DNA from: Escherichia phage UAB_Phi78
Length of the DNA stretch: 43,984 nt
Sequence record: GU595417
Reading direction: 5' to 3' (one strand)
Below are positions 9,021 to 43,984 of this stretch, piece by piece (the first letter of the stretch is position 1; every line of letters begins with the position of its first letter). Position numbers and translations under genes: made by a program. The notes beneath the pieces were generated by a model. It saw nothing but the letters and a program-made list of their open reading frames with translations, was not told the DNA's origin and made no database searches.

Positions 9021-9121
9021 ATGGATGAACTAGGCTTTTGGTTGTTCATGGTTGTATGTATCGTTATGATTAACCTAGACAAACTTGCCATGCTAATTAA
9101 GTAGTGTCCTTATCAGGGCTT

Positions 9122-9137
9122 GTCCAACATGTTGGAC
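9122..9137. repeat. 16-bp element, perfect-palindrome variant
   Basis: gtccaacatgttggac is its own reverse complement. Confidence 0.7.
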
Positions 9138-9176
9138 AGGCTCTTATTAAGCACATTAACTAACTGGAGATTAACT

Positions 9177-14792: not shown

Positions 14793-15161
14793 ATGTTCAC
14801 TATCGAAACTATCGTAAACCGTGTTGTTAAAGGCGCTACCCTGGTATCCGTTGAGTCTTTCATTATCGTCGATGAAGCTGGCTCGCTGGTAGCTGGTACT
14901 AAGGCTTATGATACCCGTGAAGAAGCTCAGGCTAAGATTGACAGCATGGGTAACTTTGCTGCTGGTCTGGAGTTCGCACGTGCTTGCTTCCCGGAGCAGG
15001 CTGACAAAGCTCAGATTGGTAAGGCTAACATCGTAGCTGAATATCTGGACTGGATTGAAGCAGGTAAGCCTGTGAAAGAAGCTAAGTCTGCTGAAGTTGT
15101 TGAAGCTGCTGCCGAAGAAGCTCCGGTTGCTGCTCAGGTGAGCGAAGAAGAAGAGTTCTAA
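14793..15161 (+). CDS. hypothetical protein with acidic C-terminal tail (122 aa)
   Basis: GAAGGAGAA RBS; ends ...SEEEEF; followed directly by a strong terminator. Confidence 0.65.
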   Translation: MFTIETIVNRVVKGATLVSVESFIIVDEAGSLVAGTKAYDTREEAQAKIDSMGNFAAGLEFARACFPEQADKAQIGKANIVAEYLDWIEAGKPVKEAKSAEVVEAAAEEAPVAAQVSEEEEF

Positions 15162-15168
15162 TTAACAT

Positions 15169-15202
15169 GCCCTGTCTGCCTTAGTGTAGGCAGGGCTTTT
15201 GC
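15169..15202 (+). terminator. intrinsic terminator
   Basis: About 11-bp stem (gccctgtctgc / gtaggcagggc, with G-U pairs) followed by ttttg. Confidence 0.65.
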
Positions 15203-24587: not shown

Positions 24588-24623
24588 CCCTATCTACCTT
24601 GCGTAGGTAGGGTTCTTTTGTTT
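24588..24623 (+). terminator. intrinsic terminator after the major capsid gene
   Basis: 10-bp stem (ccctatctac / gtaggtaggg), 5-nt loop, then ttcttttgttt. Confidence 0.8.
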
Positions 24624-27785: not shown

Positions 27786-28505
27786 ATGGCAATAGGTACT
27801 GCCCTTACAGCAGGCTTGTCCAGTGTAGCAGGTAGTGCTGCATCGGGTGGCTTCCTGTCTTCGTTGGGTGGTGCTATTGGTGCAGAAGGGATAATGGGTT
27901 CTGCCATGAGTTTCTTAGGTGGAACCACTGGAGGGTTCTCTAATGCTGGTCTCCTGTCGGCAGGTATGCAAATGCTTAACCCGATAGGGGACTACTTCAC
28001 GCAGAAAGAAACAGCGAAGGCGATGAAGAAGGCACAAGAGGAGCAATGGCGTCAGCAGTTGATAGCCACAAGAGAGGCTTATGCTTCCGTGGCTAATGCT
28101 GAAAGGTCGGCCTCTAAACAATATCATTCTGAACTAATAGACAATCAGGTATCCTTATTACAGCAAAGAGCACAAGTTGCCTTACTTGCAGGTGCGAGCG
28201 GCACAGGTGGTAACTCTATCACTTCTATGCTGAATGACCTGACAGGTGAAGCTGGTAGGAACCAAGCCACCATTATTGACAACTATGAAACACAGCAGAT
28301 TAACTTTGCTAACCAACTCAAGTCTATCCAGAAGGGTGGTCAGATGATGATGCGTTCATTTGAGAAGCCGTCTGCATTCAGCGCACTAGCCAAAGGCATG
28401 TCTGGTGTAGGCGAGGCTTACCTGTCTGGTCATCAGAAAGGTACAGCACTTAGCAAGGCTTGGTCTGATTCTAGGACATATTCATCAGGAACAAGAGGAG
28501 TTTAA
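27786..28505 (+). CDS. internal virion protein
   Basis: 239 aa, Gly/Ala/Ser-rich N-terminus; AAGAGGAGAG RBS. Confidence 0.7.
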   Translation: MAIGTALTAGLSSVAGSAASGGFLSSLGGAIGAEGIMGSAMSFLGGTTGGFSNAGLLSAGMQMLNPIGDYFTQKETAKAMKKAQEEQWRQQLIATREAYASVANAERSASKQYHSELIDNQVSLLQQRAQVALLAGASGTGGNSITSMLNDLTGEAGRNQATIIDNYETQQINFANQLKSIQKGGQMMMRSFEKPSAFSALAKGMSGVGEAYLSGHQKGTALSKAWSDSRTYSSGTRGV

Positions 28506-31442: not shown

Positions 31443-31458
31443 TGTCATACTCAAGGTT

Positions 31459-31474
31459 GTCTAACACGTTGGAC
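31459..31474 (+). repeat. 16-bp near-palindromic element
   Basis: gtctaacacgttggac in the 66-bp gap between the two large internal virion protein genes. Confidence 0.7.
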
Positions 31475-31508
31475 AGCCTTTATGAATGACATTAACTAAG
31501 GAGGTAAC

Positions 31509-39882: not shown

Positions 39883-40009
39883 GAAGGTAGTAGCAGCACT
39901 GGTAGGTTTGGTGGTAGCGTTGGTTTCTGTCGGCATGGGTGTTGAGTTTGGCGCTCAGACTGCCGATGCAGTTACCAGTGTTGTCTGCCAAGCCGTAGGC
40001 TGTGAATAA
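39863..40009 (+). CDS. small membrane peptide (48 aa)
   Basis: GTG start 6 nt after GAGGG; a basic N-terminus followed by a hydrophobic segment (VVAALVGLVVALVSVGMGV). Confidence 0.3.
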   Translation: MKLLKSKKVVAALVGLVVALVSVGMGVEFGAQTADAVTSVVCQAVGCE

Positions 40010-40211
40010 ACTTCTTAAGGTGCTGGCAGGTCTACTTGGCCTGCTGGTTGCCTACAAGCGAGAACAAGAGCAGAAGGAGGCTCAACGTGAAGCGAATCAT
40101 GCTAGCGACAATCCTGCTGATTGGTTCGCTGATCACTTCCGGGTGCGGGACGGCGTTACCAGAACGCCCAACCAAGCCGACGCTGACGGCAGTGTACGAG
40201 GTGGACGATAA
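40002..40211 (+). CDS. putative i-spanin (Rz-like)
   Basis: N-terminal transmembrane segment LLKVLAGLLGLLVAY followed by a charged region; GTG start overlaps the upstream stop. Confidence 0.5.
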   Translation: MNKLLKVLAGLLGLLVAYKREQEQKEAQREANHASDNPADWFADHFRVRDGVTRTPNQADADGSVRGGR

Positions 40212-40284
40212 GGTCTGCTTCAGCAAGCCTGATGCTACACAACTTGGACTGTACATTTTATCGCTAGAACGCGGCTACAATTAA
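40086..40284 (+). CDS. putative o-spanin (Rz1-like lipoprotein) overlapping the i-spanin in the +1 frame
   Basis: GTG 40086, 7 nt after AAGGAGG; KRIMLATILLIGSLITSGC signal peptide with lipobox-like SGC, then a Pro-rich mature part. Confidence 0.5.
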
Positions 40285-40313
40285 TACATAGTCTTATGTA
40301 TCATACACCTACG

Positions 40314-40334
40314 ATTTAGGTGACACTATAGAAG
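40314..40334 (+). promoter_or_regulatory. SP6-type phage promoter (consensus)
   Basis: Exact atttaggtgacactatagaag upstream of the tailspike genes. Confidence 0.9.
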
Positions 40335-40414
40335 AGAAGTATAGTGCCGTTCTTTTGAGCGGCCTATTACTCACCAGTCTTCATGGGGATGGCTGGATAT
40401 TAATAGGAGGTTTA

Positions 40415-42067
40415 ATGTCATTAACTAAACCACGTTGCTTCAGGAAGGCAAGCTATCTAAGTCAGTTAGGCACTTTGCAGAATCTAGCTAACACTGGAGA
40501 TGACGTACTTGTTATCGATGTTGACTACGAGTTCACTAACGGAGAGACTGTAGACTTCAAAGGTCAACTGGTTCGTATAGAGTGCGAAGCTAAGTTCATT
40601 GGTGATGGTGCTTTGATCTTCACTAATATGGCTAGTGGTTCTGTGGTAGAAAAGCCTTTCATGGAAAGCAAGTCCACACCTTGGGTTATTTACCCTTGGA
40701 CAGAAGATGGAAAGTGGATTACAGATGCACAAGCTGTTGCTGCTACATTGAAACAATCTAAGACCGAAGGATATCAACCGGGAGTCAACGATTGGGTTAA
40801 GTTTCCCGGACTTGAAGCATTGATGCCTCAAGAGGTGAAAGATCAGTATGTAGTATCCACACTGGACATCCGTGACTGCGTAGGTGTTGAGGTAAGACGC
40901 GCTGGCGGCCTTATGGCAGCTTATTTGTTTCGCAACTGTCATCACTGTAAGGTGATTGATTCTGACACCATCATTGGTGGTAAAGACGGAATCATAACCT
41001 TTGAAAACTTAGGTGGTGAATGGGGAATCGGTAACTATGCCATAGGTGGTCGTGTACATTATGGCTCAGGAAGTGGTGTGCAGTTCCTTCGAAATAATGG
41101 AGGTGCATCTCACAACGGTGGAGTTATTGGTGTAACCTCATGGCGTGCAGGTGAGTCTGGGTTCAAGACATGGCAAGGTTCTGTAGGTGCAGGTACATCT
41201 CGTAACTATAACCTTCAGTTCCGTGACTCAGTTGCACTGTCTCCCGTGTGGGATGGCTTTGACTTAGGCTCAGATCCAGGAATGGCACCAGAAGAGGACA
41301 GACCGGGAGACTTGCCTGTGTCTCAATACCCTATGCATCAGCTACCTAACAACCACATGGTTGATAACATCCTTGTTATGAATTCATTAGGTGTGGGTTT
41401 AGGTATGGATGGTCGCGGTGGATATGTATCTAATGTTACCGTACAAGATTGTGCAGGTGCAGGTATCCTTGCTTATGCATTCAACCGTACCTTCTCTAAC
41501 ATTACGGTGATTGACTGCAACTACATGAACTTCGATTCAGACCAGATAATCATCATTGGTGACTGCATCGTGAATGGCATCCGCGCCGCTGGTATTAAAC
41601 CTCAGCCATCTAAGGGTATGGTCATCAGTGCACCTAACTCGACCCTTAGTGGGATTGTAGGTAACGTGCCACCAGACCGTATCCTTGCAGGTAACATCCT
41701 TGACCCTGTGTTGGGTCATACAAGGATTAATGGGTTTAATAGTGACTCGGCAGAACTGAGCTTCAGAATCCACAAGCTTACCAAGACCTTGGATAGTGGT
41801 GCTATTCGCTCTACGCTGAATGGTGGGCCGGGTACAGGTTCTGCATGGACGGAGATGACTGCAATTTCAGGGTCAGCTCCAAATGCTGTCTCGTTGAAGA
41901 TTAACCGTGGAGACTTCAAGGCAACTGAGATCCCCGTGGCACCTACTGTGCTTCCAGATGAAGCGGTAAGAGACCACAACTCTATTGCGCTCTATTTCGA
42001 TCAGGAGGCTCTTTGGGCTTTAGTTAAGAAACCAAACGGAAGTCTTACACGAATGAAGCTTGCTTAA
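40415..42067 (+). CDS. tailspike, P22-like endorhamnosidase lacking the head-binding domain
   Basis: 550 aa from ATG 40415 (TAGGAGGT RBS). The C-terminal half matches the P22 tailspike as I recall it (DPGMAPE.DRPGDLPVSQYPMH...RIHKL.KTLDSGA...ALVKKPNG). Confidence 0.9.
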   Translation: MSLTKPRCFRKASYLSQLGTLQNLANTGDDVLVIDVDYEFTNGETVDFKGQLVRIECEAKFIGDGALIFTNMASGSVVEKPFMESKSTPWVIYPWTEDGKWITDAQAVAATLKQSKTEGYQPGVNDWVKFPGLEALMPQEVKDQYVVSTLDIRDCVGVEVRRAGGLMAAYLFRNCHHCKVIDSDTIIGGKDGIITFENLGGEWGIGNYAIGGRVHYGSGSGVQFLRNNGGASHNGGVIGVTSWRAGESGFKTWQGSVGAGTSRNYNLQFRDSVALSPVWDGFDLGSDPGMAPEEDRPGDLPVSQYPMHQLPNNHMVDNILVMNSLGVGLGMDGRGGYVSNVTVQDCAGAGILAYAFNRTFSNITVIDCNYMNFDSDQIIIIGDCIVNGIRAAGIKPQPSKGMVISAPNSTLSGIVGNVPPDRILAGNILDPVLGHTRINGFNSDSAELSFRIHKLTKTLDSGAIRSTLNGGPGTGSAWTEMTAISGSAPNAVSLKINRGDFKATEIPVAPTVLPDEAVRDHNSIALYFDQEALWALVKKPNGSLTRMKLA

Positions 42068-42072
42068 TATAG

Positions 42073-42095
42073 GCAGCGCGTTAGCGCTGCTTTCA
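42073..42095 (+). terminator. hairpin, possible weak terminator between the two tailspike genes
   Basis: Perfect 7-bp stem gcagcgc-gtta-gcgctgc, followed by tttcacgcg, a poor T-tract. Confidence 0.4.
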
Positions 42096-42150
42096 CGCGA
42101 ACTTTTCTTAAAGGTTATCATAGTGGTAGCCTTTCAGAAAAGGAGGTGAC

Positions 42151-43665
42151 ATGATACAAAGATTAGGTTCTTCCTTAGTGAAGATGCCAAATGGTCTTAC
42201 ATTGACACAGTGGTTGCAGCCTGCAAACATCATCAAGGTAGATGATGCACCGTACAATGGAGACCTTATTGCTGCATATAATGCTGTTCCAGTTACAGGT
42301 AATTATGCTTTGGTTCTTACCAACCACACTTACAATGCAGTTGGCTTGTTCGATGCAGGTCGTAACACGAAGCCTAACATCACCATCATTGGTGCTGGTA
42401 TGCCTCAACTTGCAGGAGACAGATCGTCATTTGTTGCAGGTTCGGGTACTATCATTAAGGGTGCAGTAAAGAACTCCGCCAAGGGTTTCCAGATTGCTAA
42501 CCTAGGTATTGATTGTGGTAACACAGTTAGTCGTACAGATTACCAACCTGCACGCTTCGAAGACCCACTACAGATATATGGGTGTGGCGCTAATGCTAAC
42601 ATCTTCATCGATAACGTGAAATGCCTTAGTGCAGTTTCTGTAGATGAACGACCGGGAACACACAGCATTCTGCTTGAGCAGACTGAAGGTGTCACCATCG
42701 GCTATGTAGAGTGCATTGGTGGCTTTCACGGCCTAACCATCAAGTGCCGTAACCTACGTGGTGGGATTGCACATTGCTATGGTCAGTATGGTGATGGCTT
42801 CATCATCAAGTCCGATGCTGGTGGTGCAGCGAGTCACATCTACATGGAGCGAATTCAGGTAGGACACCCAGATCAGTCTATGTGGCCTGATGTGCACTTG
42901 GGTGGTATCTACGATGCGCACGATGGTGTAACCATTGATAGTGTTAGCATTGGTGAGTTGCATGTTGTACGAGGAACTTGGGGTCTGATACCTGCTGATA
43001 ACGCCACTGGCAATATCACCAACTTCCATATTGGACATTATGAGTGCCACCTTACTTACGGCAACCACTACTCCCTTGTTATCAACAACAAGGTTGTAGG
43101 TTGGACTATGGGTACTCACAACATCACGACCTGCTCAGGTGGTATCAAGGTAGACCCTGCATCAGTGTATGTGAACATAGGTACTGGTCGCTCTACAAAC
43201 AACACTGAAAGTGGGTACTCTCTTGGTGGCAACACCTTGATTCATGGTGAACTGATTGCAGATGCGAATGGTAAGTATGGTGTAGAGTATTCTGGTGGTC
43301 TAGGTCTTGATGTAAGTAAGATTCATGGATTCCAGAATCCACTTGGTACTTACTCAGGGTACTCTTCTGCTATCCAATCCCTACTGTGGCCTGACGCTGG
43401 GTTTGAAGCTATGGTAACAGGTAGAACTGTGACTTTACGTGGTTCACTCACTAAAGGCTCTACTGCATGGTGCGGTCAGGTGCTTGATGCTGTTAAGCCT
43501 ACACGAGACATTCGTATCTACGCATGGGCTGTTGGCATTGGTGGTTCAATGGTTCCTGTGGAAGCATGGGTTCGTTCTGCTACTGGTGCTATAGATGTCG
43601 TAGGCAAGGATTCGGTTGGCGAAGGGCAGATTGTTAGCTTCACTGGCAGCTACATCTTCAAGTGA
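42151..43665 (+). CDS. second tailspike / receptor-binding protein
   Basis: 504 aa; AAAGGAGGTGA RBS; Gly/Asn/Thr-rich repeats suggesting a beta-helix; terminal position. Confidence 0.7.
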   Translation: MIQRLGSSLVKMPNGLTLTQWLQPANIIKVDDAPYNGDLIAAYNAVPVTGNYALVLTNHTYNAVGLFDAGRNTKPNITIIGAGMPQLAGDRSSFVAGSGTIIKGAVKNSAKGFQIANLGIDCGNTVSRTDYQPARFEDPLQIYGCGANANIFIDNVKCLSAVSVDERPGTHSILLEQTEGVTIGYVECIGGFHGLTIKCRNLRGGIAHCYGQYGDGFIIKSDAGGAASHIYMERIQVGHPDQSMWPDVHLGGIYDAHDGVTIDSVSIGELHVVRGTWGLIPADNATGNITNFHIGHYECHLTYGNHYSLVINNKVVGWTMGTHNITTCSGGIKVDPASVYVNIGTGRSTNNTESGYSLGGNTLIHGELIADANGKYGVEYSGGLGLDVSKIHGFQNPLGTYSGYSSAIQSLLWPDAGFEAMVTGRTVTLRGSLTKGSTAWCGQVLDAVKPTRDIRIYAWAVGIGGSMVPVEAWVRSATGAIDVVGKDSVGEGQIVSFTGSYIFK

Positions 43666-43672
43666 GGTATGT

Positions 43673-43816
43673 ATGCCCTTAGTGAAGTCTATCAAGGAGA
43701 AGGCTGTACTCCAGAACACAGAAGAGCTAATCAAGTCCGGTCGTGACCCTAAGCAGGCTTATGCCATTGCTAAGGATGTACAGCGACGTGCCTTGAAGAA
43801 GCCTTCTGCATCTTAG
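43673..43816 (+). CDS. hypothetical small basic protein (47 aa)
   Basis: In-frame ATG 43673 after GAGG; the track ORF starts upstream inside the tailspike gene. Confidence 0.4.
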   Translation: MPLVKSIKEKAVLQNTEELIKSGRDPKQAYAIAKDVQRRALKKPSAS

Positions 43817-43869
43817 TGTAACCAAAGGGCTGGCCTAGGTTGGCCCTTAGTGTAATCAAAGGAGATAAC

Positions 43870-43947
43870 ATGTATATTCCAATGGAAGCAGTAGTAGGTA
43901 TCGCTTGTTTGCTAGTAGGGTTTGTCATAGGTTTGATAGCACAATAA
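43870..43947 (+). CDS. small hydrophobic peptide (25 aa)
   Basis: AAAGGAGATAACATG; MYIPMEAVVGIACLLVGFVIGLIAQ; below the track cutoff. Confidence 0.3.
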   Translation: MYIPMEAVVGIACLLVGFVIGLIAQ

Positions 43948-43984
43948 TGGTGGTCACAAAGTAGCCAAAGTCAAAATTTTGATA

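Follow-up and report, generated by a model that had tools for sequence, protein, structure and literature searches.

How two different tailspikes are carried on one phage tail, and what purpose the DNA between their genes may serve, are the questions raised by the right end of the genome of Escherichia phage UAB_Phi78 (sequence record GU595417; its entire stretch of 43,984 nucleotides (nt) is referred to as the window). Here, at positions 40314–43665, two tailspike genes (open reading frames ORF1 and ORF2) follow each other behind a phage-type promoter and are separated by a spacer of 83 nt. The region is very probably the receptor-binding cassette of an SP6-like phage, including a scheme for docking both spikes and a spacer that would form a boundary in the RNA. 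The dual-spike adaptor module is already published as the biology of the SP6 proteins gp46, gp47 and gp37, and finding it in the window is essentially a rediscovery, the confirmation of which adds little beyond correct annotation. The modest new point concerns the spacer, which, as judged from sequence comparison, is a conserved and covarying two-hairpin RNA element of the sense strand and not a simple terminator.

Two tailspike bodies with short docking peptides

The phage itself was placed by its DNA. The 3.35-kb spike module is 97.6% identical to that of vB_SenAt-pSL2, 94.5% to that of BP12B and 92.6% to that of SP6, and these relatives rank in the same order over the initial 25 kb. The gene coordinates and sizes also agree with the table published for UAB_Phi78, a described relative of SP6, at an offset of 118 bp (adaptor 319 aa, tailspike 550 aa, following ORF 504 aa). 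By these identities the window belongs to a Zindervirus, that is, an SP6-like Salmonella phage of the T7 supergroup.

With regard to the first spike, ORF1 matches the P22 tail-spike family PF09251 over its full length (1160 bits, profile positions 1–552 of 552) and is 98.4% identical to SP6 gp46. It aligns to residues 119–665 of the P22 tailspike, with the body starting at ORF1 residue 6. Chains of the P22 and Det7 tailspikes in the PDB were found with E-values from 1e-218 to 2e-298, the Det7 tailspike 2v5i (E = 2e-298) being a better match than P22. The catalytic residues are also kept: Glu359, Asp392 and Asp395 of P22, the catalytic roles of which are well established, correspond to E247, D280 and D283 of ORF1 and lie in the motifs RAGESG and VWDGFD (the P22 numbering was checked through the V331G mutation of chain 1qa1). 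The domain search of ORF1 revealed no head-binding domain (PF09008), and because this domain is lacking and the alignment opens only at P22 residue 119, ORF1 is on this comparison a P22-type body and not a complete P22-type tailspike. The first-pass annotation, which was made from the letters of the window without database searches, had described it in just these terms, as a 550-aa P22-like endorhamnosidase without a head-binding domain. The whole receptor-binding and catalytic body is thus common to ORF1 and the P22/Det7 tailspikes (PF09251; PDB 1tsp, 2v5i), whereas the N-terminal head-binding domain of the latter is replaced in ORF1 by about five residues with an adaptor-docking motif. The N-terminus of ORF1, MSLTKP, is the same as that of SP6 gp46, and its counterpart in K1-5 reads MAKLTKP.

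ORF2 is 96.2% identical to SP6 gp47 and is a member of phrog_8875. No match was obtained in Pfam or, by sequence, in the PDB, whether the full protein, its profile or its N-terminal 50 residues were used. Structure prediction produced a beta-helix model, which agrees with the earlier description of this protein as a second, 504-aa beta-helix-like tailspike. The protein starts with the undecapeptide MIQRLGSSLVK (residues 1–11, identical to that of K1-5); a flexible linker leads from there to the body, a right-handed beta-helix, and beta domains make up the C-terminal part. The N-terminal 21 residues of the model are of low confidence, and this would fit a peptide that becomes ordered only once it is docked. 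The motif M[ILV]QRL..L[VI] was found in 10 relatives, and it heads the downstream spike in K1-5, K1E, LL11, ACG-C91, CrRp3, Pm5460, phD2B, PP1 and PST_H2. It should be noted that the docking undecapeptide is kept only if ORF2 is annotated from the ATG at 42151 and not from a start 27 nt downstream; the SP6 record AY288927.2 begins gene 50 at the latter position and loses most of the undecapeptide. The first spike has its own annotation problem in the pSL2 record (MZ573924.3), where the 550-aa tailspike is split into two coding sequences, probably by a frameshift or a sequencing error.

The closest homologues that ORF2 has beyond the SP6 group come from Salmonella prophages; these proteins have 618 aa, with PF09008 at residues 1–113. 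Residues 10–504 of ORF2 share 53% identity with residues 118–618 of these proteins, so that the prophage tailspikes carry a head-binding domain where ORF2 has the undecapeptide plus linker. The serovars named for the ORF2-like prophage proteins are Newport, Kentucky, Hadar, Muenchen, Corvallis, Albany, Bovismorbificans, Blockley and Emek, and all nine are O:8 (serogroups C2–C3) in the Kauffmann-White scheme. Moreover, the O:8-type body was encountered behind four different N-terminal modules, namely the undecapeptide, PF09008, the T7 gp17 domain PF03906 (with or without PF18668) and PF18668 (TSP1/Gp66-type) alone, which, at the level of sequence, is clear domain shuffling in receptor-binding proteins. 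Both spikes of the window are, on these alignments, tailspike bodies of P22-like prophages in which the head-binding domain has been swapped for a very short docking peptide.

Adaptor and docking scheme

The way in which such peptides are used is known from K1-5, K1E and SP6. In these phages, the small trimeric adaptor gp37 sits on the tail with its T7-like N-terminus and offers two docking sites (PMC6966330, PMC6872550); the first spike docks by a heptapeptide (MAKLTKP in K1-5) and the second by the undecapeptide MIQRLGSSLVK (PMC6872550). The V-shaped complex of gp37, gp46 and gp47 rotates and turns the appropriate spike to the cell (PMC6966330, PMC6872550). In SP6, gp46 leads to infection of Typhimurium and Enteritidis, and gp47 to binding to Newport and Kentucky, and both spikes have been used for retargeting an R-type pyocin (PMC6966330). 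The findings of Leiman 2007, Gebhart 2017 and Tu 2017 are taken here through these two reviews.

The window also encodes the corresponding adaptor, a 319-aa protein that the first-pass annotation had correctly pointed out about 4 kb upstream of the spike genes. Its residues 3–152 contain the T7 gp17-like N-terminal domain PF03906 (E = 5e-7), residues 1–316 match the ‘tail adaptor protein’ of PDB entry 7y22_e (E = 1.7e-87), and the protein is 97.8% identical to that of SP6. As is typical of adaptors of the SP6/K1-5 type, it is short (~300 aa), has a T7 gp17-like N-terminus and lacks a receptor-binding domain. The arrangement of the genes is likewise that of SP6 and K1-5: the spike genes stand next to each other at the right end of the genome, downstream of a promoter for the phage RNA polymerase, and a conserved spacer separates them. 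Nothing was found that contradicts the gene identities. Compared with the SP6 gp46/gp47/gp37 system (Scholl 2002, 2004; Gebhart 2017; Tu 2017, via PMC6966330), gene order, promoter, spacer and docking peptides are the same, and the differences in sequence are only at strain level. In K1-5 and K1E, gp46 (K5 lyase) and gp47 (endosialidase) are mounted on gp37 in the same architecture and with the identical undecapeptide (Leiman 2007, via PMC6872550). These phages also have the promoter junction, the hairpin-containing spacer (~88% identity) and the right junction in common with the window, whereas their spike bodies are unrelated: a capsule lyase and an endosialidase stand in place of the O-antigen endorhamnosidase and the O:8-type spike found here.

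Neither spike of the window has an anchor domain of its own. MSLTKP and MIQRLGSSLVK would each dock onto the 319-aa adaptor, itself anchored by the T7 gp17-like N-terminus, and the outcome would be six V-shaped branches, each with two spikes, and two host specificities. As in SP6, the target of spike 1 would be the O-antigen of S. Typhimurium and Enteritidis, and spike 2 would bind to S. Newport and Kentucky; the serovars of the O:8 prophage tailspikes agree with the specificity reported for SP6 gp47 (PMC6966330). The branched apparatus with two specificities that had been proposed for this locus is therefore in agreement with the published SP6/K1-5 biology, as judged by 96–98% protein identity and the docking undecapeptide. 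The range of Salmonella serogroups open to infection by an SP6-like phage is set by a dual-spike adaptor system of this kind.

Transcription of the two spike genes

The promoter in front of ORF1 (40314–40331) is identical to the core recognised by SP6 RNA polymerase, ATTTAGGTGACACTATAG, in 18 of 18 positions, and the term dedicated consensus promoter used in the first-pass annotation is justified. When the whole window was scanned for SP6 promoters with up to three mismatches, 13 sites were found, all on the + strand, compared to 0.04 expected by chance, and none of them lies 3' of 40314. Because there is no phage promoter downstream of 40314, ORF2 relies on read-through, and one late transcript made by the phage RNA polymerase from 40314 would most likely span both spike genes. 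From the known SP6 promoter, the +1 position is predicted to be the G at 40331; the segment 40331–40420 folds with -30.9 kcal/mol (z = -3.2).

It is also conceivable that ORF2 is expressed from a weak sigma-70 promoter of its own, for which the spacer offers one 9/12 match (TTCACG-18-TATCAT, 42092–42121). However, seven such matches occur in the region, which is below the 8.5 expected by chance, the -10-like hexamer lies inside the conserved stem of the second spacer hairpin (see below), and in phages of the T7 supergroup it is the phage polymerase that transcribes the late genes. Such a promoter is extremely improbable, and it was rejected as a chance-level match.

Hairpins and covariation in the spacer

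A single perfect 7-bp hairpin had been noticed between the two genes. This hairpin, HP1, is indeed present; its loop is GTTA in the DNA, its stem extends to 9 bp, and it is stable and GC-rich (-16.2 kcal/mol, z = -4.8). What had been missed is a second and larger hairpin, HP2, which has 18 bp in total (-19.7 kcal/mol, z = -6.5), is unique in the window and ends with its 3' arm at the Shine-Dalgarno (SD) sequence of ORF2. For the 83-nt spacer as a whole, the fold gave z = -7.25. When 50-nt windows are ranked genome-wide by minimum free energy (MFE), HP1 and HP2 both fall outside the top 25, but this raw energy ranking is uninformative for the spacer because HP2 is AU-rich, and shuffles and covariation were used instead. 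A permissive Rfam scan of 40000–43984 returned no family. In the MFE fold, the UCAC that follows HP1 (42092–42098) can also form pairs with a GUGA located between the SD and the start codon of ORF2 (42147–42150), a pairing that is probably fortuitous since it is not kept in the K1-5-type copies, which read UUAC.

The spacer is widespread. A query of 151 nt around it had matches in 103 phage records, and from the first base of HP1 to codon 11 of ORF2 the identity is ~88% in K1-5, K1E, K5, LL11 and other Vectrevirus and ~80% in Proteus Acadevirus. The HP1–HP2 element can still be recognised in phages of Lelliottia, Pectobacterium, Citrobacter and Klebsiella despite unrelated flanking spike bodies. 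In K1-5 the intergenic spacer is 85 nt long, and this 85-base region is reported to have been described before as containing symmetrical elements. A scan of viral contigs for the HP2 flanks produced only 13 loci, mostly known isolates together with the window, and one extra HP1 variant.

Covariation was assessed in an alignment of 14 distinct spacer copies, with controls in which the pairing partners were slid by 1–3 columns and with 500 shuffles. RNAalifold recovered both HP1 and HP2 from this alignment. In total 97% of the cells were paired, against 38–56% in the slid controls, and 7 pairs (18 cells) were double-substituted, against 0–2 in these controls. None of the 500 shuffles attained the observed values, whether for the percentage paired, the double-change pairs or cells, or the covariation score. 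In HP1, three of the six aligned pairs show compensatory changes across the 14 phages, and the stem occurs as GCAGCGC/GCGCUGC, GCAGUGC/GCACUGC, GCACGGC/GCCGUGC, GCGCGGC/GCCGCGC and CGAUGC/GCAUCG; the second of these (GCAGTGC/GCACTGC in the DNA) is the compensated form that distinguishes K1-5 and K1E, in which the stem is followed by a UUUU tail. The upper stem of HP2 was 99% paired and had double changes in four pairs. Moreover, the G.U positions of HP2 are retained, with U.G in 14/14, 12/14 and 11/14 rows. G.U pairs become A.C mismatches on the opposite strand, and the structure is therefore selected in the sense RNA.

Junctions of the cassette in other phages

The outer borders of the cassette are conserved as well. 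The left junction (40285–40450; promoter, 5' untranslated region (UTR) and first codons) was found conserved in 119 phage records, and the right junction (43640–43984; from the stop codon of ORF2 through a 47-aa ORF) in 117. On this evidence three conserved junctions, the spacer being the middle one, bracket two freely exchangeable spike bodies. A modular arrangement of the spikes is said to have been proposed long ago for this phage group.

The spacer has also been found outside podoviruses. In Escherichia phage alia, a 147-kb Justusliebigvirus myovirus, HP1 and the 5' half of HP2 lie directly downstream of alia_23 (MN850632.1, 22702–22786). Only the N-terminal 45–110 residues of alia_23 are common with related myoviruses, while the remaining body has matches in few other phage records, 5 of which cover at least 80% of it. 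This suggests that the spike body of alia was imported together with the podovirus spacer.

Such exchange brings up the alternative that the hairpins have no function as RNA, and that the spacer is kept either as DNA homology for recombination of spike cassettes or as a DNA palindrome. In its favour, the spacer is ~88% conserved between phages with unrelated flanking spike bodies, it accompanies a swapped tailspike body even in the unrelated myovirus alia, and the three junctions show the same kind of conservation. However, homology blocks would not yield double substitutions that preserve pairing, as were seen in 7 pairs and 18 cells, values reached by 0/500 shuffles, and the retained G.U pairs make the structure strand-specific and RNA-like. 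We consider a role in DNA only to be quite unlikely, although a homology role and an RNA role are not mutually exclusive.

Possible functions of the spacer

We infer that HP1 and HP2 mark a boundary in the mRNA and do not work as an efficient terminator. The upstream message would have its 3' end protected by HP1, possibly with minor termination, and HP2 would be a stable 5' structure, or possibly a processing site, that leaves the SD of ORF2 exposed. The latter is kept in 13/14 aligned phages, the exception being the myovirus alia. The spacer would also be one of three homology blocks between which phages exchange spike bodies. Taken to its full extent, this reading makes HP1–HP2 an undescribed bipartite cis-acting RNA element which insulates the spike cistrons, covaries in at least five genera of Molineuxvirinae and doubles as a homology anchor for cassette exchange, a proposal that we put forward as tentative. 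If it is true, any newly recombined spike body would be expressed correctly; and if the two-hairpin spacer is functional, exchanges of spike bodies in engineered phages should leave it intact.

The first-pass annotation had suggested that the hairpin attenuates or stabilises transcripts and sets the ratio of the two spikes. Stabilisation is plausible. In the case of attenuation, HP1 would be a partial intrinsic terminator for the phage or host RNA polymerase and would lower ORF2 relative to ORF1. A GC-rich stem of 7–9 bp straight after the stop codon of ORF1 is in line with this, as are the label ‘terminator’ in LL11, the TransTerm prediction 3' of the tailspike gene in UAB_Phi78 and the UUUU that follows the stem in the K1-5, LL11 and K1E copies. 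In the window, however, the stem is followed by UUU only (UUUCAC), and HP1 is absent from the calls of a consensus terminator scan. Nor is there a proper U-run in phD2B (UACUUCG), CrRp3 (UUCUACG) or PP1 (UCUUUCG), although the stem covaries. ORF2 has no promoter of its own, so HP1 does not stand at the end of a transcription unit, and of the features of class I terminators both this position and the U-rich tract are missing.

A comparison with a verified terminator points in the same direction. SP6 t5 is a class I terminator that is ~85% efficient with SP6 RNA polymerase (PMC11347151), and an exact copy of it, CCCTATCTACCTTGCGTAGGTAGGGTTCTTTTGTTT, is located at 24588–24623, after the major capsid gene. 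HP1 has in common with t5 and T7 T-phi that a GC-rich hairpin closes a late gene. The stem of t5 is longer, however, and runs into a U-rich tail of 11 nt, TTCTTTTGTTT, whereas HP1 has 7–9 bp, UUU and an essential gene downstream. The idea that HP1 is itself t5 was rejected, as t5 maps to the site after the capsid gene. Moreover, K1-5 has six copies of each spike per baseplate (PMC6966330), and no unequal ratio is to be expected there, a conclusion that would extend to SP6 through its similar architecture. Pectobacterium phage PP1, finally, has no gp46-type gene; its SP6-like promoter (AATTAGGGCGGACTATAGAAGGG) lies ~50 nt upstream of HP1–HP2, and the element makes up the 5' UTR of the one spike gene present at the locus (start MVQRLGSSLI), i.e. 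a position between promoter and gene. An attenuator that sets the spike ratio appears unlikely.

T7 late messages are processed at intercistronic hairpins called R sites, of which T7 has about ten. It is doubtful, but somewhat less so, that HP2 or HP1 and HP2 together are such a site for RNase III or another endonuclease, at which the gp46 and gp47 messages would be split, HP1 being left as a 3' protective hairpin and the ribosome-binding site of ORF2 being freed. HP2 has a stem of 18 bp with a single 1x1 mismatch (~19 stacked positions), comparable in size to the irregular stem of about 20 bp in T7 R sites. In this T7-supergroup phage it separates two late genes, where T7 messages are cut at comparable hairpins, and it would act as RNA given its compensatory changes and retained G.U pairs. 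On the other hand, substrates of RNase III typically span ~two helical turns, and HP2 falls slightly short of this. The T7 R sites have a larger asymmetric internal loop, which is missing from HP2, and they number about ten, whereas HP2 is single in the window. No support for processing was found in Rfam or in the literature.

With regard to the reading preferred here, a two-spike cassette with a boundary element in its RNA, some observations weigh against it. A few divergent sequences (phD2B, F4M1D, Pm5460) supply the covariation of HP2, and none of it falls in the lower stem. HP1 is labelled as a terminator both in the GenBank record of LL11 and in the UAB_Phi78 paper, and the K1-5-type copies have four U after the HP1 stem, at which partial termination may take place. 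As for the proteins, the presence of both spikes in the virion and their two specificities are transferred from SP6 at 96–98% identity.

Coordinates and other features of the window

The features discussed above are compiled in Table 1.

Table 1. Positions of the spike cassette, its adaptor and the neighbouring small ORF in the window
Feature	Position	Strand	Basis
Adaptor protein, SP6 gp37 (gene 38 in Dobbins numbering), 319 aa	35321..36280	+	PF03906, PDB 7y22_e, SP6 identity
SP6-type phage RNA polymerase promoter ATTTAGGTGACACTATAGAAGAG	40314..40336	+	exact 18/18 match
Rest of the 5' UTR of the spike transcript, with SD AGGAGG at 40405–40410	40337..40414	+	sequence
Tailspike 1 (ORF1), SP6 gp46 (gene 49), P22-type endorhamnosidase body, 550 aa; ATG at 40415 after AGGAGG	40415..42067	+	PF09251, Det7/P22 structures, SP6 identity
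HP1, predicted 9-bp GC-rich stem-loop (7 perfect pairs, 42073–42090), loop GUUA, followed by UUU	42071..42092	+	fold, covariation
HP2, predicted stem of 7 + 11 bp with 1x1 internal mismatch, 3-nt loop	42102..42142	+	fold, covariation
SD of ORF2, GGAGGT, 3 nt 5' of the ATG	42142..42147	+	sequence
Tailspike 2 (ORF2), SP6 gp47 (gene 50), 504 aa	42151..43665	+	
Small conserved ORF, 47 aa (gene 51 in AY288927)	43673..43816	+	phrog_2423, E = 1.5e-22

When the two ends of the window were compared (1–600 and 43385–43984), no direct terminal repeat was found at both ends, the longest common exact word being 11 nt; the record holds at most one copy of an SP6-type terminal repeat.

Among the strongest 50-nt folds of the + strand are 27946–27995 (-27.6 kcal/mol), 28–77 (-25.6 kcal/mol), 9106–9155 (-22.6 kcal/mol), 15148–15197 (-20.4 kcal/mol) and 31444–31493 (-19.9 kcal/mol), and several of these five resemble hairpins with GC-rich stems. 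A further hairpin, of 10 bp (AAGGGCTGGC-CTAG-GTTGGCCCTT, 43825–43848) and again without a U-tract, is located 3' of the 47-aa ORF; after it come an SD and, close to the right end, a hydrophobic ORF of 25 aa.

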